Shown: positions 21,633 through 64,000 of the stretch, piece by piece
How the letters are laid out: each line of letters opens with the position of its first letter
Position numbering within the stretch: position 1 is the first letter of the stretch
Program-made: the position numbers and the translations under genes
The notes under the pieces: generated by a model
What the model was told of the DNA's origin: nothing
Seen by the model: only the letters and a program-made list of their open reading frames with translations
Database searches by the model: none
Assembly (NCBI GenBank): GCA_012522765.1
Contig: JAAYJW010000312.1
Coordinates: 2,753 to 66,752, forward strand
Direction of reading: 5' to 3'
Origin: a candidate division WS1 bacterium
GTDB taxonomy: Bacteria > Armatimonadota > Zipacnadia > Zipacnadales > UBA5352
Length of the DNA stretch: 64,000 bases

Positions 21633-24104
21633 ATGGCCGGCCGCTTCGCGCAGGTCATCGTCGATCAGCCGGCGCAGGATCTTGACCGGGAATTCAGCTA
21701 CTCCGTCCCTGCCCACCTGGAAGAGGCTCTCCAGGTGGGCAGTCACGTTCTTGTGCCCTTCGGCCGCAGGCGGCTCGCGGGCTGGGTGACCGGCTTTGCC
21801 ACCATCCGGCCCGACTTCCGGGTGCGGGAGATCATCAGCCTGCTGGTGGATGAGCCGGTCTTCGACGAGCGCGGTCTCGCCCTGGCGCGCTGGATCTCCG
21901 AGCACTACCTCTGCCCGCTTCGTGATGCGCTCCGCTGTCTTCTGCCACCGGGCGCAGGTCGCGATCCTGAGACGCTGATCTCGCTCACCGATGCCGGACG
22001 CGGCATCCCCGCCTCCGCTCTCGCTCAGGCACCGCGGCAGCAGCAGGTGCTTGCAGCACTACAGTCGCTGGAGGGCGAGACGCCGCTTGAGGCGCTCGTG
22101 GGTGCGCTGGAGGCTCAGGATGCGACCGTCACCCGGCCGGTCGTCATGTCCGCGCTGCGCTCGCTGGAGGAGCGTGGGCTGGCGGACGTGCGGCGCGTCC
22201 TCGGGGGGCCGAAGGTCCGCGAACGGCGCCAGCAGGTGGCACGCCTGTGTGGCAATGAGGATTGGCCGGCACTGATCGAGGAGCTTCGGGCGCGCGCTCC
22301 GCGACAGGCGGAGACGCTTGAGGCGCTGCTGGAAGCGGAGGACGGGCTGCTGGTGGCCGAACTGAACCGCGGCGCGGTGAACGCCCTCTGCGAGCGCGGC
22401 AGCGTCGAGGTGTCCGACGACAGCATTCGCCGCCGGCCACAGCGGCAGGAGATGGGCGGACAGGGCAGTGATTTCCTCCCCCTCACCACCGACCAGCAGT
22501 GCGCATTCGACCGCGTAGATGCCGGTCTTGAAGCACGCGCGTTCACCGGGATGCTGCTGCACGGTGTGACGGGCTCGGGGAAGACGGAGGTCTATCTCCA
22601 CGCCATCGAGTCGTCGCTGCACAGAGGCCGCGGGGCGATCGTGCTGGTGCCGGAGATCTCGCTGACGCCGCAGATGGTCGGGCGCTTCCGGGCGCGCTTT
22701 GGCGATCGGCTTGCGCTCCTGCACAGCGCGCTCGGAGCGGGGGAGCGCTTCGACGAGTGGATGCGCGTGCAGAGCGGCGAGGCCGACGTGGTGGTGGGCG
22801 CACGTTCCGCTATCTTTGCGCCGGTTGCCGACATCGGCGTGATCGTCATTGACGAGGAGCATGAGCGGGCATACAAGCAGGATTCGCCGCCACGCTATCA
22901 CGCTGTTGCGGTGGCCGAGATGCGCGCGAGGCAGCACGAGGCGGTGCTGCTGGTCGGCAGTGCGACCCCCTCGCTGGAGTGCTATCACCGCGCCACCGAG
23001 GGGGAGGGAGGCCTTTGCCTGTGCGAGCTTCCGCAGCGCATAGATGAGCGTCCTCTACCTGAGGTGGAGATCATCGACCTGCGCGGCGAGACGCTGATGG
23101 GCACCACCGGCACCTTCAGCCAGCGCCTGCATGATGCGCTTGAGGCGTGCCTGGCGAATGGCGAGCAGGCGATGCTCTTCCTCAACCGGCGCGGCTTCTC
23201 CACCTTCGTGATGTGTCGCAACTGCGGTTTCAGCCTCACCTGCCGCGACTGCTCGGTGTCGCTGATCTACCACCACGCTTCGCGGACGATGCGCTGCCAT
23301 CACTGCGACTTCGCGGTGCCGGTGCCGGAGATATGCCCATCCTGTGAGTCGGAGGACATCGGCTTCAAGGGCCTCGGCACTGAGCGCGTGGCGGATCAGG
23401 TGACGCGTGAGTTCGAGGGGGCCAGCGTATTACGCATGGACCGCGACACCACCTCGCGCAAGGGCGCTCACGCGCGCATCCTCGAGGCATTTCGGCGCGG
23501 CGAGGCGAATGTGCTGATCGGCACACAGATGATCGCCAAGGGACATGATTTCCCCAACGTTACGCTCGTGGGCGTACTGAATGCCGACACCGGCCTCAAT
23601 CGCGCCGATTTCCGCGCTGCGGAGCAAACCTTCCAGCTTCTGACGCAGGTGGCGGGTCGTGCGGGCCGCGCGGATAAACCAGGCCGCGTGCTGGTGCAGA
23701 CATACAATCCCGAGCATCAGGCCATTGTCCATGCGGCGCAGCATGATTATGCCTCGTTCTACGCATGGGAGCTTGAAAAGCGCCTTCAGAACATGTATCC
23801 TCCCTTCGCACGGCTGATCAACTTAACGATCGGCGACGAGGAAGAGGAAGCGGCGCTCAAACTGGCACGGCGGCTGGCATATCAGTTGCAGCAGCGGGGG
23901 CTGGAGCACAGGCGGGGGATGATGCAGTTCATGGGGCCGGCGCCGGCGCCACTGACGCGGTTGCGCGGGCGGTACCGCTTCCACCTGCTGCTCAAGGGCC
24001 CCTCGATCGAGCGGTTGCGCGAGATACTGACGGACGCCCTCGAGGCACTCGGAGATGACGCTTCGGCGGTGACGGTGGATGTGGATCCGCTTGATATGAT
24101 GTGA
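21633..24104 (+). CDS. priA: Primosomal protein N' (replication restart helicase PriA)
   Basis: N-terminal FAQVIVD...LDREFSY, Walker A GVTGSGKTEVY, DEEH box, Cys4 zinc module (CRNCG...CRDC...CHHC...CPSC). Alternative starts at 21564 or 21579. Confidence 0.85.
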   Translation: MAGRFAQVIVDQPAQDLDREFSYSVPAHLEEALQVGSHVLVPFGRRRLAGWVTGFATIRPDFRVREIISLLVDEPVFDERGLALARWISEHYLCPLRDALRCLLPPGAGRDPETLISLTDAGRGIPASALAQAPRQQQVLAALQSLEGETPLEALVGALEAQDATVTRPVVMSALRSLEERGLADVRRVLGGPKVRERRQQVARLCGNEDWPALIEELRARAPRQAETLEALLEAEDGLLVAELNRGAVNALCERGSVEVSDDSIRRRPQRQEMGGQGSDFLPLTTDQQCAFDRVDAGLEARAFTGMLLHGVTGSGKTEVYLHAIESSLHRGRGAIVLVPEISLTPQMVGRFRARFGDRLALLHSALGAGERFDEWMRVQSGEADVVVGARSAIFAPVADIGVIVIDEEHERAYKQDSPPRYHAVAVAEMRARQHEAVLLVGSATPSLECYHRATEGEGGLCLCELPQRIDERPLPEVEIIDLRGETLMGTTGTFSQRLHDALEACLANGEQAMLFLNRRGFSTFVMCRNCGFSLTCRDCSVSLIYHHASRTMRCHHCDFAVPVPEICPSCESEDIGFKGLGTERVADQVTREFEGASVLRMDRDTTSRKGAHARILEAFRRGEANVLIGTQMIAKGHDFPNVTLVGVLNADTGLNRADFRAAEQTFQLLTQVAGRAGRADKPGRVLVQTYNPEHQAIVHAAQHDYASFYAWELEKRLQNMYPPFARLINLTIGDEEEEAALKLARRLAYQLQQRGLEHRRGMMQFMGPAPAPLTRLRGRYRFHLLLKGPSIERLREILTDALEALGDDASAVTVDVDPLDMM

Positions 24105-24139
24105 GTGGCCGGCAGTGTTTGGCTTAAGGAGCTATTGCG

Positions 24140-24706
24140 ATGGCCGTAAGACGCATTGTCTACTGTGGTGACGCGAGACTGCGGCGAAAGGCCCAGCGGG
24201 TTCGCGAAATCAGCGACGATCTGCACGAACTGCTTGACGAGATGCGCGAGACGATGCTGGAGGCCGATGGCCTCGGGCTAGCTGGCGCACAGGTGGGGGA
24301 GTGCCTCGCGGTTGTGGTCGTGCGCGCCGACAGCGAGGGCACGGAGGTCATTGATCTGATCAACCCGCGGATCGTCGAGCAGGAGGGCGAGCAGGATGGC
24401 CACGAGGGCTGTCTGAGCCTGCCGACTCTCCGGGGGATGGTGTTGAGGCCATCGCGGGTGGTGGTGGAGGCGTTCGACCGCGAGGGCGAGGAGATCGAGG
24501 TTGAGGGCGAGGGCCTGATGGCCCGCTGCCTTGCACACGAGTTGGACCACCTGCAGGGGCGGCTGTTCATAGACGCCGTGGACCCTGAGAGTCTCGCGTG
24601 GCTGCGGCCGGACAGGCGTGAGGATTCGGGCTACCGGGTGGAGCCGACGACGCTCGCTGAGGCGCAGGAGGCGTTCGATCGCCTGCGCTCCGGGCGGGAG
24701 GAGTAG
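24140..24706 (+). CDS. def: Peptide deformylase
   Basis: GLAGAQVG, EGCLSLP and HELDHL motifs. Confidence 0.9.
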   Translation: MAVRRIVYCGDARLRRKAQRVREISDDLHELLDEMRETMLEADGLGLAGAQVGECLAVVVVRADSEGTEVIDLINPRIVEQEGEQDGHEGCLSLPTLRGMVLRPSRVVVEAFDREGEEIEVEGEGLMARCLAHELDHLQGRLFIDAVDPESLAWLRPDRREDSGYRVEPTTLAEAQEAFDRLRSGREE

Positions 24707-24709
24707 CGG

Positions 24710-25648
24710 ATGCGTGTCGCGTTCTTCGGCACGCCGCCGCCCGCCGTGCCGTATCTTCGCGCGCTGGCGGCGAGCGAACATTCGATCGTGGCGGTCATAT
24801 CGCAGCCCGATCGTCCTGCCGGGCGTGGCCGCTCTCTGCGTCCCAGCCCGGTCCGTGCGGCTGCAGATGAGCTTGCTCTCCCGGTCATGACGCCTGAAGC
24901 GGCGTCGGATCAGGATTTCCTTGACGCGCTGGCGGAACTCAAGCCGCAGTTGGGGGTTGTAGTGGCGTATGGGCAGATACTGCGCCGGAAGCTGCTCGAT
25001 TTGCCGGAGCGGGGCCTCATCAATGTGCATTACTCCCTGCTGCCCCAACTGCGCGGGGCGGCGCCTGTCTACGGCGCACTGCGGCAGGGGCTTGATGTGA
25101 CCGGCGTCACCATCCAGCGCATGTCGCGGAAGCTTGACGCGGGCGACATCATCCTGAGGCGTGAGGTGCCGATCGAGCCCGATGACAATCGCGGCACGCT
25201 GACCGAAAGGCTGACGGAGGCGGGTGTGCCCCTGCTGCTTGAGGCGATGGCGCTGATCGAGCGGGGAGAGGCGCCCCGGACACCGCAGGATGATGAGCAG
25301 GCGACGTATGTCGGGCTGGTCCAGACCGACGATTGCCGGATTGACTGGTCGCTGCCGAGCGAACAGGTGAGGAATCTGGTGCGCGCATGCACCCCCTGGC
25401 CGGGTGCGTGGTGCCTTCTTGACGGCAATCGCGTGAAGGTGCAAGACGTGTCACTGGTGCAAAATGTCTTAAGACAGGAAGGGAGCCCGGGGCAGATCGT
25501 CGAAATGCCTCGTGCGAGAGGTCCTATTGTGATCACGGGGACCGGTGTGGTGGAAATCACGAGACTGCAGCCGCCTGGGAAGAGGTCAATGTCAGGGGAG
25601 GAGTTCCTGCGCGGCGCGAGGCTGCAGGTTGGAGATCGCTTTGACTGA
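24710..25648 (+). CDS. fmt: Methionyl-tRNA formyltransferase
   Basis: The N-terminal formyltransferase domain follows def (classic def-fmt pair). SLLP motif. Confidence 0.9.
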   Translation: MRVAFFGTPPPAVPYLRALAASEHSIVAVISQPDRPAGRGRSLRPSPVRAAADELALPVMTPEAASDQDFLDALAELKPQLGVVVAYGQILRRKLLDLPERGLINVHYSLLPQLRGAAPVYGALRQGLDVTGVTIQRMSRKLDAGDIILRREVPIEPDDNRGTLTERLTEAGVPLLLEAMALIERGEAPRTPQDDEQATYVGLVQTDDCRIDWSLPSEQVRNLVRACTPWPGAWCLLDGNRVKVQDVSLVQNVLRQEGSPGQIVEMPRARGPIVITGTGVVEITRLQPPGKRSMSGEEFLRGARLQVGDRFD

Positions 25649-25727
25649 TTAGTCCGCCGGCAATCATCACTTCCGACAACAGCGAATCTCGCCGGGTCAG
25701 CTCAGGCAGTCCGGAGGACGTAAACTG

Positions 25728-26084
25728 ATGGCCGCCGCTACCGAGACAATACAGCAGGCGCACGAACACCGCATCAACGGCGAATACGATGAGGCGATGG
25801 CCCTCTACCGCCAGGTGCTGGAAAAGGTGCCGGAGGAGGCCGAGGCTCTCTGGGGCCTGGGGCTGTCTCTGATGAACATCGGCGATTTCGACGAGGCGCT
25901 GGAAAGCATCTGTGCAGCGACGCAGATCGAGCCGCAGAACCAGCTCTACCTGCTCGATGCGGGTAAGCACTACACCATGCTGGGGATGTACGATGAGGCC
26001 AGGCCGTTCTTTGAGAAGGTTCTGGAGATAGACCCGACGTCGCAACACGGTGCAGAGGCACAGAAGCAGCTTTCGTACTACTAG
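25728..26084 (+). CDS. Tetratricopeptide-repeat protein
   Basis: Three TPR-like repeats (A..Y...L...P....AL..LG). Confidence 0.55.
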   Translation: MAAATETIQQAHEHRINGEYDEAMALYRQVLEKVPEEAEALWGLGLSLMNIGDFDEALESICAATQIEPQNQLYLLDAGKHYTMLGMYDEARPFFEKVLEIDPTSQHGAEAQKQLSYY

Positions 26085-26156
26085 GGATTCGGAGGGTATA
26101 TGTGAGCCGGGCCCGGGGTGGCGCAAGCGATGCCTCTGAGGGCCGGCTCTGCTGCT

Positions 26157-27992
26157 ATGGTAAAGGTAACATTCAAGCCCGGTGGCGAGAGCGGCGAGAC
26201 AGAGGCAGGCACCACGATTCTGGCTGCGGCAGCAAGCCTTGGAGTGACGATCACCGCTCCCTGTGGCGGGCGTGGCCGCTGCGGCAAGTGCCGCGTGATT
26301 GCGGAGAAAGGGTGCGCACCGCCTACGCCCTCGGAGCGCGATCAGTTGACGGGCGAGGAGCTTCGGCATGGCATCCGCCTCGCCTGCGAAGCCGTCCTGC
26401 TGGAGGACGCGCAGGTGATCATCCCGTCGGATTCGCGCACCATCAGCGGCAAGATTCTCGCCGATGATGCCCGCGAAGAGATCTCACTTCGCCCCAACGT
26501 CTCGCGTCGGACGGTGGTTCTCCCGGCCCCCAGCCTGTCCGATCAGCGTAGCGACTTCGAGCGGGTGGCGGATGGTCTCGGCACTCCCGCACAGAGTCTG
26601 AGGATGCATCGCGAGGCTCTTGCCGAGCTTCCGTCGGTGCTGCGAGACAATGACTTCAAGGTTGACGTCATCACCGTCGGCGACACCATCGCCGGAGTTC
26701 GCCCGCCGAATGCTCGCCCCTGCTGCCTCGGCGCGGCGGTGGACATCGGCACCACCACTGTGGTCGTCTATCTCGTGGACCTCTCCAGCGGCGAGCGGCT
26801 TGCGACTGCTTCGGCGCTGAATCCGCAGGCCCGCTGGGGCCATGACCTGATCTCGCGCATCGAGCACGTGCAGAGCACCCCGGCCGGGCTTGAGGATCTG
26901 CGCCGGAGCATCGTGGATCTGATCAACCGTCTGCTCGGTGAGACCACCGAGCAGGCCGGGGTCCGCAGGCGGGACATATACGAAGTCTCGATCGTCGGCA
27001 ACACCTGCATGCACCACATGTTCCTCGGCCTCGACCCGCGACATCTCGCGCACGCGCCCTACATTCCGGTTACGCGCGAGCCGCTGGAGCTTTCGGCTGA
27101 AGAGGCGGGTCTTGCGCTCAGCCCGGCGGCGAACGTATACTGCCTGCCGGTGATCGCGGGCTTCGTGGGCGCCGATACAGTCGGCGTGTTGCTCGTGTCA
27201 AGGCTGACCGAGCGCGATCATCCGACGCTGGCCATCGACATCGGCACCAACGGCGAAGTCATGCTCTGGTCGGGCGAGCGGCTGCTGGTGGCCTCCTGCG
27301 CTGCAGGTCCGGCCTTCGAAGGCGGCGAGATCCGGCATGGTGTGCGTGCTGCCGACGGGGCCATTGAGCGCGTCTGGCTCAGCAATGGAAGCATCGGCTA
27401 TGCGACGATCGGTTCCACGCGCCCCAACGGCATCTGCGGATCTGGGATCTTCGACACCGTTGCCACGCTGCTTGACAGCGGGGTTGCCGACAGCACCGGC
27501 CGGCTGGCCGATGAACAGGCCGCTGAGAAGCTGCAGCGGGGGCTGGTGGAGCGGCTGCGTGGCGAGGGCCCCCAGCGCGAGTTTGTCCTGGTGGAGAGCG
27601 CCGAGAGCGCCAACGGCGACATCGTCTTCACGCAGAAAGATCTGCGGGAAGTTCAGTTGGCGAAAGGTGCTGTGCGTGCCGCGGTGGAATTACTCTGTTC
27701 GGCGGCGGGGATAGAGGCCAATGATATCGCCGAGGTATTACTGGCGGGGGCCTTCGGCAACTACATTGACCGCCGCAGTGCGCTGCGGATGGGGCTGCTG
27801 CCGGAGGTAGGCGTGGAGCAGATCAGAGGCGTGGGCAATGCGGCCGGAGCGGGCGCGCTGGCCGCGCTGGTGTCCGTAGACGAGCGACAGCGGGCGGCGG
27901 AGCTGGCGCGGCAGGCGGAGCACATTGAGTTGATGGCCAGTCCCGCGTTCCAGATGGTCTTTGCCGACAGCATGATCTTTCCTGAGTCCTGA
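26157..27992 (+). CDS. RACo-like corrinoid reductive activation protein ([2Fe-2S] ferredoxin + ASKHA/DUF4445 ATPase)
   Basis: MVKVTFKPGGE...CGGRGRCGKCRV...LAC ferredoxin domain, then a DIGTTTVVVYLVD ASKHA N-terminal motif. The track ORF starts at 26118. Confidence 0.75.
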   Translation: MVKVTFKPGGESGETEAGTTILAAAASLGVTITAPCGGRGRCGKCRVIAEKGCAPPTPSERDQLTGEELRHGIRLACEAVLLEDAQVIIPSDSRTISGKILADDAREEISLRPNVSRRTVVLPAPSLSDQRSDFERVADGLGTPAQSLRMHREALAELPSVLRDNDFKVDVITVGDTIAGVRPPNARPCCLGAAVDIGTTTVVVYLVDLSSGERLATASALNPQARWGHDLISRIEHVQSTPAGLEDLRRSIVDLINRLLGETTEQAGVRRRDIYEVSIVGNTCMHHMFLGLDPRHLAHAPYIPVTREPLELSAEEAGLALSPAANVYCLPVIAGFVGADTVGVLLVSRLTERDHPTLAIDIGTNGEVMLWSGERLLVASCAAGPAFEGGEIRHGVRAADGAIERVWLSNGSIGYATIGSTRPNGICGSGIFDTVATLLDSGVADSTGRLADEQAAEKLQRGLVERLRGEGPQREFVLVESAESANGDIVFTQKDLREVQLAKGAVRAAVELLCSAAGIEANDIAEVLLAGAFGNYIDRRSALRMGLLPEVGVEQIRGVGNAAGAGALAALVSVDERQRAAELARQAEHIELMASPAFQMVFADSMIFPES

Positions 27993-28087
27993 TGAAGGCG
28001 TCATCCGCGCCCCATCGGCGCGTTAGGCTCTTGGCGCAAGTAGCTCCGGACGTTACGACCGCAGATCATACGGGAGGTTCATCGGAA

Positions 28088-28720
28088 ATGGCGGACCTGC
28101 AGGCACTTGCTAACGCTGTCATCGGTGGCGAGAGGGAGAACGCGCTAAGACTGACCGAGGAAGCCATTGACGAGGGTGTCAAGCCGAGCGTAATCATCAA
28201 CGACGGTCTCATCGCGGGGATGAGCGTTGTTGGCGAGAAATTCAAGAATAACGAGTTCTACGTGCCGGAGGTGCTGATCGCCGCGAGGGCCATGCAGACC
28301 GCCATGGAGCGTGTCAAGCCCCTCCTGGCCGAGGGCGAGATGACCTCTCGAGGCAAGGTTGTGATCGGCACGGTCAAGGGCGACCTGCATGACATCGGCA
28401 AGAACCTCGTTGCGATGATGCTCGAGGGCGGCGGCTTCGACGTCATAGACCTCGAGGTGGACGTATCGCCCGAGCAGTTCGTCTCGACGGCTGCCGAGAG
28501 CGGCGCCCACTGCATCGCTTTGTCGGCGCTCTTGACAACCACCATGCCTTCGATGAAGGATACGGTTGATGCGCTGGTGGAGGCCGGCCTCAAGGGGCAG
28601 GTCAAGGTCATCATCGGTGGCGCGCCGGTGACGCAGAGCTATGCGGATGAGATCGGCGCCGATGGTTACGCACCGGATGCCGCCTCTGCGGTGGACAAGG
28701 TAACCCAACTGCTGGCATAG
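28088..28720 (+). CDS. Cobalamin-binding corrinoid protein (MtbC/MtmC-like B12-binding domain protein)
   Basis: N-terminal helical cap, then VIGTVKGDLHDIGKN (DxHxxG B12 motif) and a Rossmann-like B12 domain. RBS GGAGGT. The alternative start 27992 overlaps the upstream stop. Confidence 0.8.
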   Translation: MADLQALANAVIGGERENALRLTEEAIDEGVKPSVIINDGLIAGMSVVGEKFKNNEFYVPEVLIAARAMQTAMERVKPLLAEGEMTSRGKVVIGTVKGDLHDIGKNLVAMMLEGGGFDVIDLEVDVSPEQFVSTAAESGAHCIALSALLTTTMPSMKDTVDALVEAGLKGQVKVIIGGAPVTQSYADEIGADGYAPDAASAVDKVTQLLA

Positions 28721-28837
28721 TCCCCGCTTGGAGGGGTTTCTGCTGCAGCTTCCATGCGCAGAAGCTATCACCGCCGGATCGCGCTGGTGATGGCTTCTGC
28801 GTTGTGCGCTCATGCAAGTCTACGGGAGTGAAGTGCC

Positions 28838-29272
28838 ATGCCGTGGCGTTGGATTGCGATGCTGCTTGTGGCTGTCTCGCTTGGGGCGGGCGGCCAGATG
28901 TGCCTGAAATTCGGGGTGGACCAGCTTGGTGGCGGCGGCTTGGTCGCGGTCATCAAGGGCATCTTCACGCCCTACGTCTTCGCCGGCTTCGTGCTCTACG
29001 GCCTGAGCTCAATCATCTACCTGATGGTCCTGGCACGTCTGGATCTGAGCTTCGCCTATCCTTTCGTTGCGCTCAGCTTCGTCTTTGTCACGCTGCTGTC
29101 GTGGTGGTTATTGCAGGAACAGATTCCAGGACTTCGTATCATCGGTCTCGTCCTGATTATGGGCGGTGTGCTTACCGTGGCGGCCAGTTACCGCGCCGAA
29201 GCCGCGCAGGCCGCCGAGGTCCCGCAATCGCGGGTAGCCCTTCAGACACCAACGGACCCCGGAGTGACCTGA
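28838..29272 (+). CDS. Small DMT-superfamily membrane protein (ArnE/ArnF/GtrA-like polyprenyl-phosphate-sugar flippase candidate)
   Basis: Four predicted TM helices, 144 aa. First gene of the glycosylation operon. Confidence 0.5.
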   Translation: MPWRWIAMLLVAVSLGAGGQMCLKFGVDQLGGGGLVAVIKGIFTPYVFAGFVLYGLSSIIYLMVLARLDLSFAYPFVALSFVFVTLLSWWLLQEQIPGLRIIGLVLIMGGVLTVAASYRAEAAQAAEVPQSRVALQTPTDPGVT

Positions 29273-29326
29273 GGCTTTCTGGGTCCGGCTTTGTGCCCGG
29301 CGCCGCATTCGCGTATAATCCCGTGC

Positions 29327-31528
29327 ATGAGCGGCGAGTCCGGCGACCGTACTGCGACGTGGATCGCCACCATCGCACTGGTGGCGATCGCGCTGGCGTT
29401 CTGGGGGGACTGCATCTTCGGCCCTTGGACGCCGCTTGCGGCGGGCTTTCAGGCACAGATGCAGCCGTGGGCGAGTGAGGCCGATCTGCCGGGAACCGAC
29501 CGCCAGTGGTCTCCGCTGCTCTGGGACAGCGTCGCGCAGTTCTACCCGTGGCGCCTGCTGCTCGCCAGGTCCATGCGCGGGGGTGAGCTTGCGCTGTGGA
29601 ATCCCCATCAGATGTGCGGGTATCCCTTCCTCTCCAACGCTCAGTCCGCCCTCTTCTACCCCCCCAACTGGCTGCTGCCGCTCTTTGACGTAAAGTGGGG
29701 GATGGGCCTGCTGTCGTGGCTGCACTACGCGCTGGCGGCGGTACTTACGATGCTCTTCGGGCGGAAACTCGGGCTCGGAGCGCTTCCGGCCGCCTTTGTG
29801 GGCATCGCCTTCGCGTTTGGCGGCTTCATGGTAACGTGGACCGAGTTGCCGACGCTGATCAACTCCGCGACATGGCTGCCGGGGGCTCTTCTGGGCGTGG
29901 CGCTGATCTACGAGCGGCGTCGCTGGGGCCTGCCACTGCTGGGGGCTTCGCTGGCAATGGCGCTGTTGGCAGGGCATCTGCAGATCGCAGCGTATGTCTG
30001 GATGGTCGCTCTTGTCTACGCACTCGCGCGGGCGCTCTGGGAGGCAGTTAACCGTCGCGCGGCGCATCTGGGTCGGCTTGCGGCGGCGGTAGCGCTGGGG
30101 CTGCTGCTAAGCGCGCCTCAGACGCTTCCCGCGCTCGAGCTTGCAGCGAACTCCCCCCGAGGCGCTGCGGGGCCATCCGAAGCGGGGTGGCAGTTCCAGC
30201 AGGAGCGGGTGCTGCAGGTGGCGGAACTTGTCCTGCTTGTCAGCCCGGATGCGTTCGGCAATCCCGCGCATGGCGATCACGAACTGACGCGCTATGGCAT
30301 TCCCTACTCGGAGCACTGCGGCTTTGTCGGCATCGTCACGCTGCTCCTCGCGCTTCTCGGCGCATGGTTCTCGCGCACGAGGTCATACGCGTTCTTTGCG
30401 GCCCTGGCGGTGCTGTCGCTTCACGTGGCGATGGGTGGACCGCTGGCTGAGGCGATGTACTTCTATCTGCCGAAGCTGGGGCAGGCGGGCTCGTTCACCC
30501 GCTTCCTGTCGGTCTTCACCTTCGCGGCGGCAATGGCCGCCGGGTTGGGCCTCGAGGGCATCTGCCGCTATCTGAAGCAGCGGGACGAGGTCGCGGGAGA
30601 CGAAGGCTACTGCGGCTGGAACCTCTGTGCACCTGCGGGGCTGTGCGTGGTTGCACTCGTTGTCCTCTGCTACGAACTGCTTCCCTGGGCGCACACTTTT
30701 CTGCCTCGGACGCGGCGGGAGCATGTGTACCCGATGACGCCATCTATCGAGCGACTGATGGCCGCCGAGGGGCGCGTGCTCACGGTGACCCCGCGCGAGG
30801 GCTGGAGCATGGCGCGTGTGCCGGAGGCGGTGCTGCCGCCCAACTCAGCGACGGTTTACGGATATGACGCCATCGGCGGCTACGATTCGCTGATGCTGAC
30901 GCGCTTCAGAGCGTTCCTCAGTGCGTCCGAAGGGACTGAGGTAGCGCCTCCACCCAACGGAAACATGCTGCTGCCGATGGCTGCCTGCGGGCCGGGACAG
31001 GCTCTGATGGGACTGGACACGGTGATAGCACGGCGTCAGCCGGAGCCGGCGCCGGGGCATGACTGTGATGACTGGGGGCTTTCAGTCACGCAGAGCCTCG
31101 GCGGTACGGCTATCTGGCGGGTAGCGGAGGCCCTGCCGCGGGCGTTTGTGGCCCCGGACTGGCAGGAGCTTCAGCAGATAGCGGCGGACGATCCGACCGC
31201 TATGCGGGCGGCTGTGGCGTCCTGCGAGTGGGAGCGCAGCGGCAATGCCGCTATCAGGGTGGCTGTGCCGGTTGAGCGCGAGGGCGATCACCTGGTGGCC
31301 ACGGAAACCTTTGCCCCCGGCTGGAGCGCTTATGTGGACGGTCGGCGCCGGGAGGCAGTGCCTTTCGGCGACACATTCATCAGCGTGATTCTTCAGTCTG
31401 ATGACACCGAGGTCCGCTTCGTGTACGAGTCATCGACGATCAAGGCCGGTTGCTTCGTGGGAATGCTGGGGCTGGCGGCATTGATGGTGGCGGCGACATG
31501 GCGGTCAGGGAGATATGGCAAGTATTGA
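29327..31528 (+). CDS. YfhO family GT-C membrane glycosyltransferase-like protein (paralog 1)
   Basis: DSVAQFYPWRLLL...LWNPH..GYPFLSNAQSALFYP matches the YfhO signature. Polytopic, with a C-terminal periplasmic domain. Confidence 0.75.
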   Translation: MSGESGDRTATWIATIALVAIALAFWGDCIFGPWTPLAAGFQAQMQPWASEADLPGTDRQWSPLLWDSVAQFYPWRLLLARSMRGGELALWNPHQMCGYPFLSNAQSALFYPPNWLLPLFDVKWGMGLLSWLHYALAAVLTMLFGRKLGLGALPAAFVGIAFAFGGFMVTWTELPTLINSATWLPGALLGVALIYERRRWGLPLLGASLAMALLAGHLQIAAYVWMVALVYALARALWEAVNRRAAHLGRLAAAVALGLLLSAPQTLPALELAANSPRGAAGPSEAGWQFQQERVLQVAELVLLVSPDAFGNPAHGDHELTRYGIPYSEHCGFVGIVTLLLALLGAWFSRTRSYAFFAALAVLSLHVAMGGPLAEAMYFYLPKLGQAGSFTRFLSVFTFAAAMAAGLGLEGICRYLKQRDEVAGDEGYCGWNLCAPAGLCVVALVVLCYELLPWAHTFLPRTRREHVYPMTPSIERLMAAEGRVLTVTPREGWSMARVPEAVLPPNSATVYGYDAIGGYDSLMLTRFRAFLSASEGTEVAPPPNGNMLLPMAACGPGQALMGLDTVIARRQPEPAPGHDCDDWGLSVTQSLGGTAIWRVAEALPRAFVAPDWQELQQIAADDPTAMRAAVASCEWERSGNAAIRVAVPVEREGDHLVATETFAPGWSAYVDGRRREAVPFGDTFISVILQSDDTEVRFVYESSTIKAGCFVGMLGLAALMVAATWRSGRYGKY

Positions 31529-32892
31529 AGACGCTACTGGTTTTCCCTCGTTTCAGGTACCCCTCGGGCGATCCGCCTCTGGGTGTTGCTTATCTCGCCG
31601 CGGCAATGCGCGAGCGAGGACTGGATGTTGAGATCTTTGACGCTACCTTCGTGCGCAATCCACTGGAGCGACTGCGTGAGAGGCTGGTGCGGGGGCTGTA
31701 TGATCTCGTCGGCGTGAGCGCGCTGACGTCTATGATCGGCGATGCGGCCGATGTTGCACGGGTAGTGCGTGAGAGCAGCCCGGCGACGATGGTGGTGGCC
31801 GGAGGTCCGCACCCGACGGTGGCGCCGGAGCACACGCTCTCGCTCGGTGTGTTCGATGCTGTGATGGTGGGGGAGGGCGAGGAGACGCTGCCGCAACTGG
31901 TCGAGTCGGGCCTGCGGCTGGAGGATCAGCCCGGGATCGCCTACCTCGCAGATGGCGAGATGGTGCGTAATGATCCTGCGGAGGTCGTTGCGGACCTTGA
32001 CGCGCTGCCCAACCCGGCGTGGGACCTGCTGGAGATGGACCGCTACCTGGGATTGTGGTATCAGCTTGATGCGGTGCGCTATGGCGTGCGCGGAACGTCC
32101 ATCATGGCCTCGCGCGGCTGCCCCTATCGCTGCACGTACTGCCAGCCGACGCTGGGGACGATCTTCGGGCGGAGAGTCCGGCGACGTTCGCCTCAGTCGC
32201 TGGTGGCGGAGGCGGAGGAACTCAAGCGCAGGTTCGGCATTGAGGGCCTGATGTGGCTCGACGACACCTTCCTTCTCGACCGGGCATGGATGCGCGAGTT
32301 GTGCGAGGCGATGATCGAGGCGAAGCTTGGGCTTATCTGGGGCTGCAACGTGCGCGCCGATGTCTGCGACCGCGAGAGCCTGCAGATCATGCAGCAGGCC
32401 GGGCTTCGGATGGTGCATGTGGGCATCGAATCGGCGTCGCAGCGCGTGCTGGATGAGATATATGACAAGGGGATCACGCTCGAGCAGGTGCGTGAGGCGG
32501 TGGAGATGGCGAGCGATCTGGGGCTGAAGGTACGCGGCTACTTCATGCTCGGCGCGCCGACGGAGACTGAGGAGGAGGTGCGGGCGAGTGTGCAACTGGC
32601 GAATGAGTTGCCGCTGGATGACGTGACCTTCAGCATCACCACGCCGCTCCCGCACACCTACCTCTACGATTCGACGCTCGATCTGATCTCAGCGGAGTTC
32701 TCGCACTTCGACTACTACAAGTCGGCGGTCTACGACAGCGACCTTGTTCTGCCGGGACAAACACTTGACAGACTGAAGAAGCTGGCGTACATCAAGTTCT
32801 ACCTGGGGCCGAAGCGTCTCTGGCGTACGATCCAGTCGATGCTGGGGATATCGGGCCTGCGGAAGGCGCTGCTGAAGATACAGAGGTTCTGA
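31525..32892 (+). CDS. B12-binding (class B) radical SAM enzyme
   Basis: N-terminal cobalamin-binding domain (PLGVAYLAAAMRERG...VVAGGPHPT) and radical SAM CPYRCTYCQ. The start overlaps the YfhO stop (TTG 31525 or ATG 31498). Confidence 0.85.
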   Translation: MKTLLVFPRFRYPSGDPPLGVAYLAAAMRERGLDVEIFDATFVRNPLERLRERLVRGLYDLVGVSALTSMIGDAADVARVVRESSPATMVVAGGPHPTVAPEHTLSLGVFDAVMVGEGEETLPQLVESGLRLEDQPGIAYLADGEMVRNDPAEVVADLDALPNPAWDLLEMDRYLGLWYQLDAVRYGVRGTSIMASRGCPYRCTYCQPTLGTIFGRRVRRRSPQSLVAEAEELKRRFGIEGLMWLDDTFLLDRAWMRELCEAMIEAKLGLIWGCNVRADVCDRESLQIMQQAGLRMVHVGIESASQRVLDEIYDKGITLEQVREAVEMASDLGLKVRGYFMLGAPTETEEEVRASVQLANELPLDDVTFSITTPLPHTYLYDSTLDLISAEFSHFDYYKSAVYDSDLVLPGQTLDRLKKLAYIKFYLGPKRLWRTIQSMLGISGLRKALLKIQRF

Positions 32893-32894
32893 AC

Positions 32895-34778
32895 ATGGAG
32901 GCGACTGCGGGGACAAGTGGGCGGGAGGCGCTGGTGACGGGGCGCGAGATGGCGCCGGTGCTTCTGTGGGCGCTGGTCATCGCGGCGCTGACGGCATGGC
33001 CCTACGTCTGGGCGGTGCAGAGCGCGGGGCCGGATCAGCAGTTTCAGGGCTTCCTGTGGGGTGTAGATGACGGGAACGTCTACCTGTCGTGGATTCGGCA
33101 GGCCTCCGAAGGGCGCGTATTGCTGCGCAATCAGTACACGACCGTCGAGCAGAATCCGCACTTCTTCAATGTCTTCCTGCTGGCGCTGGGGAGGGTGACG
33201 GCGTGGACGGGCCAGCACCCCGGGATCATCTTCCATGCGTCGCGCCTGCTCGGGAATGTCGCGTTGCTGCTGATGATCTATCTGCTGGCGGCCTTCGTGA
33301 CACGCTCGGTGGCAGCGCGCTGGGGAGCGCTTGCGCTGGCGTCACTGGGTTCGGGCTTCGGATGGCTGGCGGCGATCTGGGCGAGCAGCGTTCCGCCGCC
33401 ACTGCCGCCGCCGCTGCGTCCTCCCGACTACGCCCCCCTGCCACCGCAGACGTGGCAGGTGATGCCCGAGGCGGTCACATTCCTGTCAATGCTGCTCAAT
33501 CCGCTCTTCGTGTGGTCCATGGCGCTCATGTGCGGAGTGCTCGTCTCGGCCGCCATCGCCCTCGAGCGCCGGAGCATCGCGTGGGCGGTGCCCGCGGGTC
33601 TGCTGCTGCTGCTTGTGGGCAATATGCACACCTACGACCTGCCCGTTCTGCACACCACGACGCTGCTCTTCGCTCTCATCCTCGTGCTACAGCGGCGGAT
33701 CAAATTCGCGGACGCGCTGCTGATTTATGCGATCATCTTCATCATTGCCCTGCCGGCCCCGGTGTGGGGGTGGTGGGCGGCGAATCAGGACCCGTCGTAC
33801 CTCGCGAAGGTTGAGACACCGACGCTGTCACCTCCGGTGCATGACTACATCGTCGGGTATGGGCTGATCCTGCTGCTGGCGATCCCCGGGGCATGGTACG
33901 CGATCAAGCGGCGGCGAGAGAACCCGCGCCTGCTGCTGCCGGTCTGCTGGGTGGGCATCAACGCGCTGCTGCTGTACGCGCCGGTGGCCTTCCAGCGTAA
34001 GATGGCTGAGGGGCTGCACATCCCGCTCTGCCTGCTGGCGGGCATTGCGCTCGCGCTGGTGATTGCACCGGCGCTCGCGGTGCATCGGGTGCGACCGGAG
34101 AGTGTGCCGGGAGTGGTTCCGGCGGGTGCGAGGCCGAAGTGGCGCTCGCGACCGCCGACGCAGCTTGAGTATGCGTTGCTTGTCGTGCTGGCAGTGGCGG
34201 TGACGTTGCCATCAAACCTGCTTTTCGTGAACACGTGTCTCCACCATGTGGCGACGAACAACCGCGATCTTCTGCGCTACCTGCAGCCGCCGATCTATCT
34301 GAGCTTCGATGAGGTCAACGGGATCAAGGCGCTGGCGGCGAAGGCGGGGCCGGACGAGATCGTGCTGTCGTCATCGCTGACTGGTAATCACATCCCGGCG
34401 CGAGCATCATGCCTGGTCTTCAGCGGCCACTGGGCGGAGACGCTGGAGTTCGGGCGGACGGTGGACTATGTCGGGCAGTTGCTGCTGCCGGGGCGCGAGA
34501 GACACGTGCTCTGGTCGGCGGTCAGGCGCATCAATGCGAGCTATGTCTTCTACGGTCCGCTGGAGGCGCTGCTGGCGGAGCAGATGATGCTCGCGGCGGA
34601 CCTCGAGCCTCCCGAGGATCCGGCCGCCGAGTTTCGCCGGTCCACCGAGCAGTTCCTGAGGCCGGTCTTCGAGCGGGGCGAAGTGACCGTCTATCGCTTC
34701 GACCCGAACGCGCAGGTGGAGCTTGACTTCCCACGGCATGAGGGGCCGATCCCAACTTCGGTCGCGGATGCGCTATGA
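32895..34778 (+). CDS. Polytopic membrane protein, putative GT-C fold glycosyltransferase
   Basis: About 13 hydrophobic helices, a proline-rich loop and a C-terminal soluble domain. No confident family assignment from motifs. Confidence 0.45.
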   Translation: MEATAGTSGREALVTGREMAPVLLWALVIAALTAWPYVWAVQSAGPDQQFQGFLWGVDDGNVYLSWIRQASEGRVLLRNQYTTVEQNPHFFNVFLLALGRVTAWTGQHPGIIFHASRLLGNVALLLMIYLLAAFVTRSVAARWGALALASLGSGFGWLAAIWASSVPPPLPPPLRPPDYAPLPPQTWQVMPEAVTFLSMLLNPLFVWSMALMCGVLVSAAIALERRSIAWAVPAGLLLLLVGNMHTYDLPVLHTTTLLFALILVLQRRIKFADALLIYAIIFIIALPAPVWGWWAANQDPSYLAKVETPTLSPPVHDYIVGYGLILLLAIPGAWYAIKRRRENPRLLLPVCWVGINALLLYAPVAFQRKMAEGLHIPLCLLAGIALALVIAPALAVHRVRPESVPGVVPAGARPKWRSRPPTQLEYALLVVLAVAVTLPSNLLFVNTCLHHVATNNRDLLRYLQPPIYLSFDEVNGIKALAAKAGPDEIVLSSSLTGNHIPARASCLVFSGHWAETLEFGRTVDYVGQLLLPGRERHVLWSAVRRINASYVFYGPLEALLAEQMMLAADLEPPEDPAAEFRRSTEQFLRPVFERGEVTVYRFDPNAQVELDFPRHEGPIPTSVADAL

Positions 34779-37156
34779 GCAGAGACGAGCGCCGACATGG
34801 CCCCAGGCGGGCGGACGATCTGCTTGCCCTCGGCTTTCTGCTTGTGGTATCGCTTGCGGTGCTGTGGCAGGTGACGATCGGCGACCGGGCAATGCTGCCG
34901 ACCGGCCTCTACCACCGCATGCAGCCGTGGCGGGCTCACGCGGACGAGCTTCCCCGGGTGGACGGCCCGCTCAACCCGATCCTCGACGCGGTGCAGCAGT
35001 TCTACCCGTGGCGGCTCTACGCAGCGCGAACGGTGCGGGAGGGGGAGGTGCCGCTGTGGAACACGCAGATGCTCTCCGGGGCGCCCTTCGTAGCGAACGG
35101 CCAGTCGGCGGTCTTCTACCCGGAGACGTGGCTGCACTACGTGATTGACCCGCTGAAGGCGCTCGGTTGGGCGACGCTGGCTTTCTATCTCATCGCGGGA
35201 TGGGGCATGTACCTGTTCCTGCGGGTGCTTTCGGCGCGGCCCGTGGCGGCGGTCATTGGCGCGCTGGCTTTCATGTTCAGCGGCTTCTTCACTGGCTGGC
35301 TGACCTTCCCGGCACTACGTTCGGTCGCCGCATGGCTACCGCTGGCGCTGGTGGGGATCGAGCTTGCCGTGCAGCGGCGTCGAGTTGCGTGGCTGGGACT
35401 CACCTCCCTCGCGGTCGGGATGCAGTTCCTCGCGGGACACCTGCAGGTAGCGATCTACGTGCTGACCTGCCTTGGGCTCTACGCGCTGTTTCGCAGCGCC
35501 GCAGTGGCGAGGAACCGCTCGAGGGCCGAGGGGTGGCGGCTGGGGGGCGCAGTTGCTGCAGCGGTGGTGCTGGGGACTCTGCTGGCCGCCGCGCAGTTGG
35601 GGCCGTCGCTGGAGATGGCCCGGCTGAACTACCGGGTGGCGGGAGTGAGCTATGAAGCGCAGGTGGCACATGCGCTGGCCCTGCCGCAGGCGCTGTTGAT
35701 GCTGATGCCGGATGCGTTCGGGAACCCGGTGGACGGCAATCACTGGGGCGGCGACCTCAATGCGTGGTGGGGGAGAGCCTACCGGGTCTACACGGAGACG
35801 GCGTGGTATATCGGAATCGCCCCGCTGCTGCTGGGCGTGGCTGCTGTCGGCCTGGGTCGGGGCGCTCAACGCTGGTTCTGGCTGGCGATCGTTCTGCTGG
35901 GGCTTGCTCTCGCCTTTGGCACGCCGCTCAACGCGCTCTTTCGGTGGCTGGTGCCCGGCTACGGTCAACTGACCGGGATCGGCAGAGCGCTGGCGCTCGT
36001 CTGCACCGGCGCCTCGGTGCTGGCAGGGCTTGGCGCCGAGGTGCTGATGAGGACGCTTCGGCCCGACCGGGCGATGAAGCTCGTTGCGGCGGCTGCACTG
36101 GTGCTGCTGCTGGCGGGAATCGCGGGTGGACTGGCAGTGTGGATATTCACGGGCACCCTGGAGGCGGCGGAGCCTTCACTGCAACTTGGCGGGTACACGC
36201 TGGCGCAGATGGCGCGGTTCGGGGTTCTGCTGATCGCGGCCTGGGCGCTGGTGTCGCGGGGTGTGCGTGGGGAGGGGCGTTACACCTGGCACGCTCTCGC
36301 GCTGCTCGTGGCGCTGGATGTCGGCTACTTCGCGGGACACTTCACGCCCGCAGGGAGAACGGACTTCGCGCAGGTTGAGGCCGGACTGCTGGAGCCGATC
36401 GAGCAGGCGCAGGGGCCGCAGCGCATCGCGACGCTTGGACCGGACTTTCTCAACCGCATCGCCCCCAACACACACATGATCCTCGGGCTGCAGTCGTGCG
36501 AGGGCTCAGAGTCGCTGATCTACGCGCCCTATCACCGGCTCATCTCGGCGGCTCAGAGTGAGCGCTTCGACTTCGCGCAGGTGGATCCGCGGCATCCGGT
36601 GCTTGACCTCATGGCGGTGGGCTGGCTGGCCTCCATGGTGGAGATTGATGAATCCGGATGGCGGCTGCAGGGCCGCTATGAGACGCTGATGTACGCGAAC
36701 GAAGAGGCGGCGCCGAGGGCGTTCCTGGCGCGGCGGGCGGTCGGTGCGGCTGATGATGACGCGATCTTCCGGGCAATCACTTCGGAAGATGCAGACCCGC
36801 TGACGATCCACCTGCTCGGCACCGCGGATGAAGCGCCGACCCACGAGGGTGAGGTGCGTGTCGCAGCATATGAGGCTAACGCGGTGCGAGTGGAGGGTGA
36901 GATGCCTTCCGGGGGATGGCTGGTGCTGGCGGATGTGGCCTATCCGGGTTGGCGCGCGTATGCCGATGGAGTCGAGGCGCCGCTGATCGCCGCCGATCTG
37001 GTTCGGCGCGCCGTGCATCTGCCGGACGGCGCTCGTGAGGTGCAGTTTGTGTACCTTCCCGCAGCGTTCCGCGTCGGCAGCTTCATGAGCCTGTTGGCTC
37101 TGGGGGCGCTCGGTGCGCTGATCGGAGTTGTGCTGGTGGGGAGACGAAGAGGATGA
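34775..37156 (+). CDS. YfhO family GT-C membrane protein (paralog 2)
   Basis: DAVQQFYPWRLY...LWNTQ..GAPFVANGQSAVFYP. ATGA overlap with the upstream gene. Confidence 0.75.
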   Translation: MSRDERRHGPRRADDLLALGFLLVVSLAVLWQVTIGDRAMLPTGLYHRMQPWRAHADELPRVDGPLNPILDAVQQFYPWRLYAARTVREGEVPLWNTQMLSGAPFVANGQSAVFYPETWLHYVIDPLKALGWATLAFYLIAGWGMYLFLRVLSARPVAAVIGALAFMFSGFFTGWLTFPALRSVAAWLPLALVGIELAVQRRRVAWLGLTSLAVGMQFLAGHLQVAIYVLTCLGLYALFRSAAVARNRSRAEGWRLGGAVAAAVVLGTLLAAAQLGPSLEMARLNYRVAGVSYEAQVAHALALPQALLMLMPDAFGNPVDGNHWGGDLNAWWGRAYRVYTETAWYIGIAPLLLGVAAVGLGRGAQRWFWLAIVLLGLALAFGTPLNALFRWLVPGYGQLTGIGRALALVCTGASVLAGLGAEVLMRTLRPDRAMKLVAAAALVLLLAGIAGGLAVWIFTGTLEAAEPSLQLGGYTLAQMARFGVLLIAAWALVSRGVRGEGRYTWHALALLVALDVGYFAGHFTPAGRTDFAQVEAGLLEPIEQAQGPQRIATLGPDFLNRIAPNTHMILGLQSCEGSESLIYAPYHRLISAAQSERFDFAQVDPRHPVLDLMAVGWLASMVEIDESGWRLQGRYETLMYANEEAAPRAFLARRAVGAADDDAIFRAITSEDADPLTIHLLGTADEAPTHEGEVRVAAYEANAVRVEGEMPSGGWLVLADVAYPGWRAYADGVEAPLIAADLVRRAVHLPDGAREVQFVYLPAAFRVGSFMSLLALGALGALIGVVLVGRRRG

Positions 37157-38793: not shown

Positions 38794-39308
38794 TGACGGG
38801 TGCTCAGGCCGACCGGGTGCCGCTCCCCGATCCGGTACGGATACTTCTGCTTGACATAGATGGCGTGCTGACCGACGGCGGGATGTACTTCAGCGCCGAG
38901 GGTCAGGCGATGAAGCGCTTCGATGTGAAGGACGGGCTGGGGGTGGTGCGACTGGCGGAGTTGGGCTTCCCGACGGCTGTCGTCAGCGGCGATCGATCGG
39001 CGATCAGCGCCGCGCGTTGCGACGTGCTGCGCATCGGGCACGTGGTGCTGGGGCGCATGGACAAGGAGACAGCTGTGAACGAGGTGCTGGAGATGACCGG
39101 CATCGCGGCGGAGAGCGCCGTGTACATCGGCGATGACATCACGGACCTCCCGGCGCTGCACATGGTCGGCCTCGGAGTGGCGGTAGCGGATGCGGTGGAC
39201 GTGGTGCGAGAGCAGGCGGACTGGGTCACGAGACGCCCGGGCGGGCATGGTGCAGTGCGGGAGATATGCGACGCTATCATTGAGCAGATCGCCCGGCGGG
39301 AGAGCTGA
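38793..39308 (+). CDS. KdsC-family HAD phosphatase (3-deoxy-octulosonate/nonulosonate-phosphate phosphatase-like)
   Basis: LLLDIDGVLTDGGMYF...DG.G...L...G......SGD...GDDITDL. Confidence 0.7.
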   Translation: MTGAQADRVPLPDPVRILLLDIDGVLTDGGMYFSAEGQAMKRFDVKDGLGVVRLAELGFPTAVVSGDRSAISAARCDVLRIGHVVLGRMDKETAVNEVLEMTGIAAESAVYIGDDITDLPALHMVGLGVAVADAVDVVREQADWVTRRPGGHGAVREICDAIIEQIARRES

Positions 39309-39326
39309 GGATCGTTGGAGGCGCAA

Positions 39327-50054: not shown

Positions 50055-50074
50055 CAACAACAGGAGGCCCAAAG

Positions 50075-61431: not shown

Positions 61432-61436
61432 TCATC

Positions 61437-62267: not shown

Positions 62268-62464
62268 GCGACGACGGTCCTTTCATGCGTCACTGCACCG
62301 TGTTACGGACACTCCTGTCAAGCTTAAGAGGAGGGTTTGGGCCACCCCAACGAATGAAACAGGTTCCCAAGTAAAGCGGGCGCTCTCCTCATAGCCAGAC
62401 AACCGAACCAACGCCACGAGAAAGCCAGATTCTCAGGTAGAGCGGGCGCGGCGCCACCGCGCCG

Positions 62465-63340: not shown

Positions 63341-63560
63341 GAATGCTCCCGGCGCGTCAGTTCGGATCATTTGAAGTGACGTAGTAAGAAAGTGTCCGCG
63401 TACTGTGTCCGGGCGAGGCGCTCGGGCTGCGCACCGGATTGCGCCCCGCCGGCCAAAAGCCCGGACGCCAGGCGGCCCTCGCCTGGAGAAGCGACATGCA
63501 ACGTCTGCACTTGCGCAAATTCTACTTTCGTCCGATAATGCCCCTGAGCCGCATGGCTCG

Positions 63561-63649
63561 CCTGAGGCAGAGCGGTGGTGGCCGACCACCATCAGAGAGG
63601 GAAACGTAGCTCGGCTACGTCCCGGCAGCCGGCCACCACCAGTCTCAGG
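63561..63649. other. Nested multi-hairpin element abutting the DUF5320 stop codon (candidate structured 3'UTR/leader RNA)
   Basis: Outer stem CCTGAG...CTCAGG encloses GGTGGTGG...CCACCACC, TGGTGG-ccga-CCACCA and ACGTAGC-tcg-GCTACGT. Confidence 0.2.
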
Positions 63650-63949: not shown

Positions 63950-64000
63950 TTGGATCACACCTCCTGTATGCCGAATATGATGCGTCATCGCTTGCTCACT

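Follow-up and report, generated by a model that had tools for sequence, protein, structure and literature searches.

A RACo-type activase and a stand-alone corrinoid protein in a conserved gene neighbourhood of Armatimonadota: a candidate hub for dispersed corrinoid-dependent methyl transfer

Corrinoid proteins of the MtaC/MtbC/MttC/MtgC family (TIGR02370) normally adjoin their own methyltransferase, whereas the corrinoid protein described here does so in none of 11 syntenic loci. It is encoded next to a RACo-type activase in a 64-kb stretch of DNA (64,000 nucleotides, in the following referred to as the window) from contig JAAYJW010000312.1 of the candidate division WS1 bacterium GCA_012522765.1, a metagenome-assembled genome of the Armatimonadota class Zipacnadia. 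The RACo protein of Carboxydothermus hydrogenoformans (AcsV; 3ZYY, 4C1N) is encoded in an acs cluster and acts on CoFeSP, a large protein of two subunits that belongs to the acetyl-CoA pathway. RamA of Methanosarcina (TIGR04270) reduces corrinoids in an ATP-dependent manner, as the activase of the window is predicted to do, and the ASKHA cores of the two are homologous, but RamA carries C-terminal [4Fe-4S] clusters and has no N-terminal [2Fe-2S] domain. Phaeobacter inhibens and Ruegeria pomeroyi possess a split methionine synthase, MtgBCDE, whose hub is a stand-alone, MtbC-like corrinoid protein (Price 2018, PMC5764234; Mausz 2025, PMC12478193). This hub works with a RamA-like ferredoxin-DUF4445 activase, and the genes for the pterin-binding and homocysteine-binding subunits and for as many as seven PF06253 paralogues lie dispersed in the genome. 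Genetic work on Phaeobacter, Ruegeria and Desulfovibrio has proven that methionine is made there by an MtbC-like corrinoid protein together with a RamA-like DUF4445 protein (PMC5764234; PMC12478193).

We propose, with a probability of roughly 0.55, that the activase and the corrinoid protein constitute the unlinked hub of a dispersed corrinoid methyl-transfer system, i.e., a methyl shuttle together with the enzyme that repairs it by ATP-dependent reduction of Co(II) to Co(I). In our best reading, the methyltransferase subunits of this system would be encoded elsewhere in the genome, and the partner enzymes and the direction of methyl flow named below are predictions. The architecture is already known from other bacteria, and the pair is a further, fairly ordinary case of it. 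The initial annotation had described a RACo-like activator and an MtbC-like corrinoid protein, flanked by a TPR protein and def-fmt upstream and by a glycosylation operon downstream. Pfam, the structures 3ZYY and 1Y80 and public gene calls bear out the identities and coordinates of both proteins, and the flanks are as described.

The activase is full-length and has the domain order [2Fe-2S] ferredoxin, linker, middle and ASKHA ATPase (coordinates of all features are given in Table 1). It matches the Pfam families RACo_C_ter (4.4e-78), Raco_middle (1.9e-61) and RACo_linker (3.9e-16) far above the respective cutoffs, as well as Fer2 (5.7e-07), and the plant-type [2Fe-2S] ferredoxin domain at its N-terminus possesses four cysteine ligands. 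Residues 3-609 align end to end with residues 5-620 of Carboxydothermus RACo (PDB 3ZYY; 364 bits), and the start codon is the same as in independent gene calls on four public contigs. The four-part architecture, the [2Fe-2S] cysteines and the ASKHA ATP motifs are thus common to both proteins; however, the neighbour in the window is a small MtaC-type corrinoid protein, and Pfam scans of the open reading frames (ORFs) revealed neither acs nor CoFeSP genes in the 64 kb. The ORFs for these and all other Pfam scans of the window were picked by codon-position GC. The NCBIfam model for AcsV (NF040756) scores 424 bits, which is under its cutoff of 800, and the RamA model reaches 140 bits against a cutoff of 500. 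The activase is a RACo-family protein and not an AcsV orthologue.

A gap of 95 bases separates the activase gene from the gene for the corrinoid protein, which matches B12-binding_2 (4.3e-23) and B12-binding (5.5e-30) and contains the DxHxxG, SxL and GG motifs as well as the cap and Rossmann domains. Its top match in the PDB is 1Y80 of Moorella thermoacetica (227 bits, residues 4-209), a protein of equal length with the same cap-plus-Rossmann fold and an identical GTVKGDLHDIGKNLVAMMLE ligand loop. The ligand motif also aligns with those of MttC, MtmC and a Desulfitobacterium corrinoid protein, and the histidine ligand, on which the initial annotation had made its proposal depend, is intact as H101 in D99-x-H101-x-x-G104. 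Translation begins at position 28088, 8 nt downstream of a GGGAGG sequence. A start at position 27992, which yields an ORF of 242 amino acids, was rejected as an over-extension, as public gene calls, the length of the homologues (208-212 amino acids) and the GGGAGG sequence favour the shorter form; an exact-match look-up of the 242-amino-acid ORF gave no match. With 200.5 bits, the protein falls narrowly below the TIGR02370 cutoff of 215.3, and the substrate-specific NCBIfam models MtgC_2, MtbC and MtaC all score clearly below theirs (208/370, 189/350 and 137/420, respectively). The protein is of the MtaC/MtbC type but outside every substrate-specific model, and these profile scores do not indicate its partner.

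Both proteins are widespread. Among metagenome proteins, the activase is represented by more than 120 clusters at 90% identity (48-100% identical to the protein of the window) and the corrinoid protein by an equal number (>120 clusters, 72-100% identical), and those with a named host derive almost all from Armatimonadota. The nearest GTDB species representatives are Candidatus Zipacnadia metagenome-assembled genomes, in which the corrinoid protein is 84% and 81% identical. As far as each contig extends, ten relatives share the gene order (gmk-coaBC-metK-priA-)def-fmt-TPR-RACo-corrinoid protein-EamA-YfhO. The identity of the activase across these relatives ranges from 46 to 77%, and the gene order holds down to the lowest value. 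The corrinoid protein is 69-86% identical in the syntenic loci, compared to 63-86% for metK, 51-71% for def and 44-67% for fmt; its conservation equals or exceeds that of MetK and is far higher than that of Def and Fmt. This housekeeping-level conservation is expected if the corrinoid protein must dock several partners. In a large clade of the Armatimonadota, the pair thus occupies a fixed position between the housekeeping genes metK-priA-def-fmt and the glycosylation cluster, with the order TPR-RACo-corrinoid protein. The low-GC Armatimonadota locus L017 retains the TPR, RACo, corrinoid protein and EamA genes although both outer flanks have changed, and in L023, def-fmt-TPR-corrinoid protein is found without RACo.

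The initial annotation had also suggested that the pair might serve the B12-binding radical SAM enzyme encoded in the downstream cluster; the pair would then supply cobalamin to this enzyme or re-reduce it. The pair and the radical SAM gene lie on the same strand, 2.8 kb apart, the corrinoid protein and the radical SAM enzyme both use B12, and the radical SAM gene recurs in L005, L012 and L014. However, it is missing from the same cluster in L006, L007, L008, L009 and L010, which retain the intact pair; because it is absent from five of the nine loci in which the region is covered, it is not the partner of the pair, and this proposal is largely refuted by synteny. L017 even keeps the pair without any glycosylation cluster. 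Moreover, B12-binding radical SAM enzymes carry their own cobalamin domain, as does the one in the window (Pfam B12-binding, 6e-23), and we know of no such enzyme that requires RACo or a separate corrinoid protein. A role of the pair as helper of this enzyme is therefore hardly credible, and the distribution of the enzyme is that of an accessory to the glycosylation cluster, not of a client of the pair.

No methyltransferase gene was found close to the pair. Pfam scans of all substantial ORFs revealed no MttB, MtaB, MtrH, URO-D, S-methyl_trans or Pterin_bind domain in the window, and its six-frame translation gave zero matches to profiles of the methyltransferases encoded beside homologous corrinoid proteins. 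Likewise, the ten syntenic relatives contain no methyltransferase gene within ±10 kb, and genes of the families PF02574, PF00809 and DUF1638 are absent from the window and from every syntenic locus according to a profile search. The claim that there is no methyltransferase partner nearby thus holds for the 64 kb, for the surroundings of the pair in ten relatives and, with the exception of one weak URO-D-fold gene, for about 5-7 kb past the window edges. The initial annotation had also raised a role as cobalamin chaperone. In this view, the corrinoid protein would be a free cobalamin store or chaperone, which holds scavenged corrinoid in a B12 auxotroph and hands it to B12 enzymes while RACo keeps it reduced. 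The lack of a linked methyltransferase in all 11 syntenic loci would be in line with such a function, and so would the gene content of related genomes, which mostly lack genes for corrin-ring biosynthesis: among the genome columns covered from Table S8 of Carlton et al. 2023 (PMC10290634; see below), hemB, hemD and cobT have a count of 0 for most Zipacnadia. However, an ATP-dependent Co(II)-to-Co(I) activase is sensible solely for a protein that reaches the Co(I) supernucleophile, i.e., for methyl transfer, and the close homologues of the corrinoid protein are overwhelmingly linked or fused to methyltransferases. To our knowledge, no member of this corrinoid protein family acts as a chaperone; none of the observations favours a storage function, and we regard it as unlikely.

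A comparison with homologues from other phyla is informative about the type of system to which the pair may belong. The comparison set consists of 75 loci outside the Armatimonadota, in which the corrinoid protein is 53-66% identical and for which neighbours within ±10 kb were considered. URO-D-type genes are the most frequent methyltransferase neighbours (29 loci), followed by S-methyl_trans (14), Pterin_bind (13) and MttB (8); RACo genes are found in 15 and DUF1638 genes in 9 of the loci. Clusters at about 50% identity have representatives in which the corrinoid domain is joined to a URO-D, MTTB, S-methyl_trans or AraC domain. These linkages and fusions show that the corrinoid subfamily is a general-purpose methyltransferase shuttle. 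Unlinked copies are common, since none of the four methyltransferase families occurs in 26 of the 75 loci. Among the loci in which ±10 kb contain no recognised methyltransferase, that of an unclassified bacterium (L024, 10001-12932) encodes a bare corrinoid protein-RACo pair, and two from Aerophobetes (L018, L021) encode the corrinoid protein alone. Hub corrinoid proteins of the unlinked kind may be widespread and under-appreciated. A different arrangement is present in Thermoflexales and Verrucomicrobiota, where compact operons (L053, 10001-12416; L065 and L070, 10001-12643) comprise the corrinoid protein gene, a stand-alone S-methyl_trans gene and then DUF1638 and/or URO-D-type genes; these resemble methyl-substrate:homocysteine, i.e., methionine-forming, systems.

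Several of the closest representatives are corrinoid domains fused to AraC-type DNA-binding domains, and PocR-AraC regulators flank the homologues in 10 loci. Together with the TPR protein encoded next to the pair, a typical interaction adaptor, this might suggest a sensory or regulatory module in which the corrinoid and TPR proteins report the B12, redox or light status. The corrinoid protein of the window, however, has no output domain and is paired with a repair enzyme of a catalytic cycle. The AraC fusions probably regulate methyltransferase operons and are not models for this protein, which makes a sensory role very improbable.

Could the pair be an orphan in the genome as a whole? Carlton et al. 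2023 (PMC10290634) provide KEGG counts for Zipacnadia and the sister class Hebobacteria in their Table S8, and the figures given here cover 47 of its 77 genome columns. In these columns, 44 of 47 genomes, among them 31 of the 34 Zipacnadia, carry 1-11 copies of K14083 (MttB family), although these counts stem from marine relatives and not from this digester genome, and they say nothing on whether the MttB genes have adjacent corrinoid proteins of their own. Since MttB-family genes occur in nearly all of these related genomes and the roseobacters provide a precedent for dispersed subunits, it appears unlikely that the pair is an orphan at the genome level. The designation as an orphan pair, which had been given in the initial annotation, is accordingly correct in the local sense, but a functional orphan is mostly unsupported in view of the dispersed precedent, the MttB genes of the related classes and the unlinked homologues in other phyla. 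A literature search on Armatimonadota in connection with corrinoids or MttB and on orphan RACo proteins found nothing specific.

Besides the two limits of the MttB counts, three further points weigh against a dispersed system with the pair as its hub. First, the part of the genome inspected comprises the window and about 5-7 kb on each side, and no partner methyltransferase was identified there. Secondly, in a neighbour-joining tree without support values, the syntenic clade is not nested in any clade with a single type of partner. This tree, of the kind that the initial annotation had called for, gives the clade no consistent sister group and does not indicate a partner; inferring the partner from sequence similarity failed altogether, as the NCBIfam models stayed below their cutoffs and the homologues are fused to four types of partner. 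Thirdly, the only methyltransferase-fold gene near the window, 1.8 kb beyond its left edge, is a weak match. It encodes a divergent URO-D-fold protein of 329 amino acids and is translationally coupled to a gene for a polytopic membrane protein of 502 amino acids without family match; the two genes together span L091 934-3431, about 1.8-4.3 kb to the left of window position 1. The protein scores 49.9 bits with Pfam URO-D and 67.7 bits, over part of its length, with a profile of corrinoid-linked URO-D genes; the MtaA/CmuA model gives just 26.6 bits against a cutoff of 235, and there is no convincing match in the PDB. Its relatives (58-69% identical) have differing neighbours, i.e., the linkage is not conserved. 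On the basis of these scores, it may be considered a weak candidate for a corrinoid methyltransferase.

The Carlton et al. counts also bear on a more specific possibility, namely that the lineage has a single methionine synthase, a split cobalamin-dependent one, to which the pair would contribute the B12-binding core and the enzyme for its reactivation, with stand-alone homocysteine-binding (PF02574) and methyl-THF-binding (PF00809) subunits encoded elsewhere. Among the 47 genomes, K00548 (metH) is found in none and K00549 (metE) in one, and metF and metV are common in the Zipacnadia and Hebobacteria genomes (PMC10290634); however, a missing KEGG orthology call does not equal a missing gene. 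The corrinoid protein is conserved like MetK and lies within the metK-priA-def-fmt neighbourhood in every syntenic locus, but the adjacency to metK may be mere synteny. Homologues with 55-60% identity are encoded directly upstream of stand-alone S-methyl_trans genes of about 290 codons, often together with DUF1638, and the NCBI name of this S-methyl_trans family is 'methionine synthase'. The syntenic clade, however, is placed outside the S-methyl_trans-linked clade of the neighbour-joining tree, and the PF02574, PF00809 and DUF1638 genes are, as described above, missing from the window and the syntenic loci. A profile of the stand-alone S-methyl_trans proteins retrieved Verrucomicrobia-type sequences among its best 120 matches, none of them labelled Armatimonadota, a result that is uninformative rather than negative. 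Despite the genetic precedent in Phaeobacter, Ruegeria and Desulfovibrio, a dedicated methionine synthase is a plausible but tentative alternative, clearly less probable than a hub for dispersed methyl transfer in general.

The pair and the roseobacter system MtgBCDE have in common a stand-alone corrinoid protein and a RamA-like activase. Furthermore, the related Armatimonadota genomes covered from Table S8 are listed with many MttB paralogues, no metH call and almost no metE call, which is also reminiscent of the roseobacters. In the latter, the corrinoid protein gene adjoins DUF1638 and the activase gene is unlinked, whereas the window has the activase gene directly beside that of the corrinoid protein and encodes a TPR protein but no DUF1638 protein; no counterpart of the roseobacter subunits PF02574 and PF00809 occurs in the window or the syntenic loci. 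Roseobacters are aerobic Alphaproteobacteria, while the hosts of the pair are anaerobic Armatimonadota. It is tempting to speculate that in a large clade of B12-scavenging anaerobic Armatimonadota without MetH and MetE, a dispersed methionine synthase depends on the very highly conserved pair for its essential B12 core. Multiple MttB-family demethylases would feed this synthase, a lineage-specific TPR adaptor would replace DUF1638, and the whole would have been assembled independently as a counterpart of MtgBCDE; we consider this scenario doubtful.

For the unlinked hub that we favour, a mechanism can be proposed whose steps are known for the protein families and would apply to this pair by analogy. 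The corrinoid protein would bind the corrinoid in the base-off/His-on form via His101 and cycle between Co(I) and CH3-Co(III). A substrate-specific methyltransferase would load the methyl group; in this lineage, members of the MttB family are the foremost candidates for this step. A second methyltransferase would then transfer the group to tetrahydrofolate, homocysteine or both. Once oxidation has turned Co(I) into inactive Co(II), the RACo-type protein would dock and pass on one electron from its [2Fe-2S] cluster, and ATP hydrolysis by the ASKHA domain would drive the uphill reduction to Co(I). As one shuttle can serve several methyltransferases, the shuttle and its activase may be kept as a unit of their own, here together with the TPR protein.

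Table 1. Position of the gene pair, its motifs and selected neighbouring genes in the 64-kb window.
Feature	Position	Strand	Basis or match
RACo-type ATP-dependent reductive activator of corrinoid proteins, 611 amino acids	26157..27992	+	Pfam, 3ZYY alignment
[2Fe-2S] site Cys36-x5-Cys42-x2-Cys45	26262..26291	+	aligns with CGGAGTCGKC of 3ZYY
Fourth [2Fe-2S] cysteine, C77, within RLAC77E	26376..26390	+	aligns with LACQ of 3ZYY
ASKHA phosphate-1 motif DIGTTT	26742..26759	+	(near-)identical in RACo structure sequence
ASKHA phosphate-2 motif DIGTNGE	27237..27257	+	(near-)identical in RACo structure sequence
ASKHA motif GICGSG	27429..27446	+	(near-)identical in RACo structure sequence
Stand-alone corrinoid (cobalamin-binding) protein, 210 amino acids, four-helix cap and Rossmann B12-binding domain	28088..28720	+	Pfam
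Lower-ligand motif Asp99-x-His101-x-x-Gly104 (D99-L-H101-D-I-G104; base-off/His-on)	28382..28399	+	structure and family alignments
SALLTT motif of the corrinoid protein	28523..28540	+	
IIGGAP motif of the corrinoid protein	28610..28627	+	
TPR protein, 118 amino acids, three TPR repeats	25728..26084	+	Pfam TPR_2 1.2e-18, TPR_16 6.1e-16
EamA/TMEM234-like membrane protein, 144 amino acids, four transmembrane segments	28838..29272	+	Pfam EamA 3.7e-06, TMEM234 1e-06
B12-binding radical SAM enzyme, 464 amino acids	31498..32892	+	Pfam B12-binding (6e-23) and Radical_SAM; gene call

The pair is preceded by priA, def, fmt and the gene for the TPR protein and followed by genes for the EamA-like protein, YfhO, the B12-binding radical SAM enzyme, a second YfhO, PMT_2, HAD, GT2, GT4 and a further GT2 protein. 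The TPR gene is found at the same position in L005-L011, L013 and L014, and also in L017 and L023 despite their differing other flanks; its small product is a possible adaptor. The steadiest neighbour of the corrinoid protein gene is the EamA-like gene, which adjoins it in L005-L015 and L017, even though the remaining neighbourhood of L015 and L017 differs. Judged by eye from its sequence, the EamA-like protein resembles the flippase subunits ArnE/ArnF, and it probably belongs, as flippase subunit, to the downstream glycosylation cluster and not to the corrinoid system. The radical SAM enzyme is BchE/HpnJ-like and is encoded inside this lipid-linked YfhO/PMT_2/HAD/GT2/GT4 glycosylation cluster (28838-42321), where it may modify, and perhaps methylate, the glycan or the lipid carrier.

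The window, with a G+C content of 65%, matches two metagenome contigs, one of 344 kb from JGI and one in the ENA from an anaerobic digester. Apart from the pair, it encodes coaBC, metK, priA, def, fmt, glycoside hydrolases, the glycosylation cluster, a histidine kinase and Fe-S/ParA-type genes. An Rfam scan of the whole window and a permissive scan of positions 24000-29500 detected no riboswitch (cobalamin, SAM) and no other RNA. The left end (66-3254, + strand) is occupied by the C-terminal 1062 amino acids of a PHP-Cache-CBS-DUF294 (nucleotidyltransferase) sensor protein of 1231 amino acids, which is cut by the window edge. Two tandem proteins of 985 and 957 amino acids with GHL10- or GH20b-like and ThuA/GATase1-like domains are encoded at 47097-52948 (+ strand), after a BatA-domain protein. 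At the other end of the window (60499-63988, - strand) and in L090 (1-10000), genes for radical SAM, Mrp/NUBPL-type ParA ATPase, CbiA-Fer4 and DUF5320 proteins cluster with three Nitro_FeMo-Co (NifX/NifB-C-terminal-like) genes, PadR and a cation-efflux fusion, an arrangement that resembles a metallocluster-handling locus.

If the pair indeed acts as an unlinked hub, one small pair of genes would gate all corrinoid-dependent methyl transfer in widespread uncultured digester and sediment bacteria that are unable to make B12. Among the gated reactions might be the synthesis of methionine and the utilisation of methylated amines. This would explain the methionine supply in genomes that are annotated without MetH and MetE, and it would tie growth to the external supply of corrinoids. 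For genome annotation, a note of caution follows: a stand-alone corrinoid protein without an adjoining methyltransferase is a normal architecture and should not be taken for an orphan.

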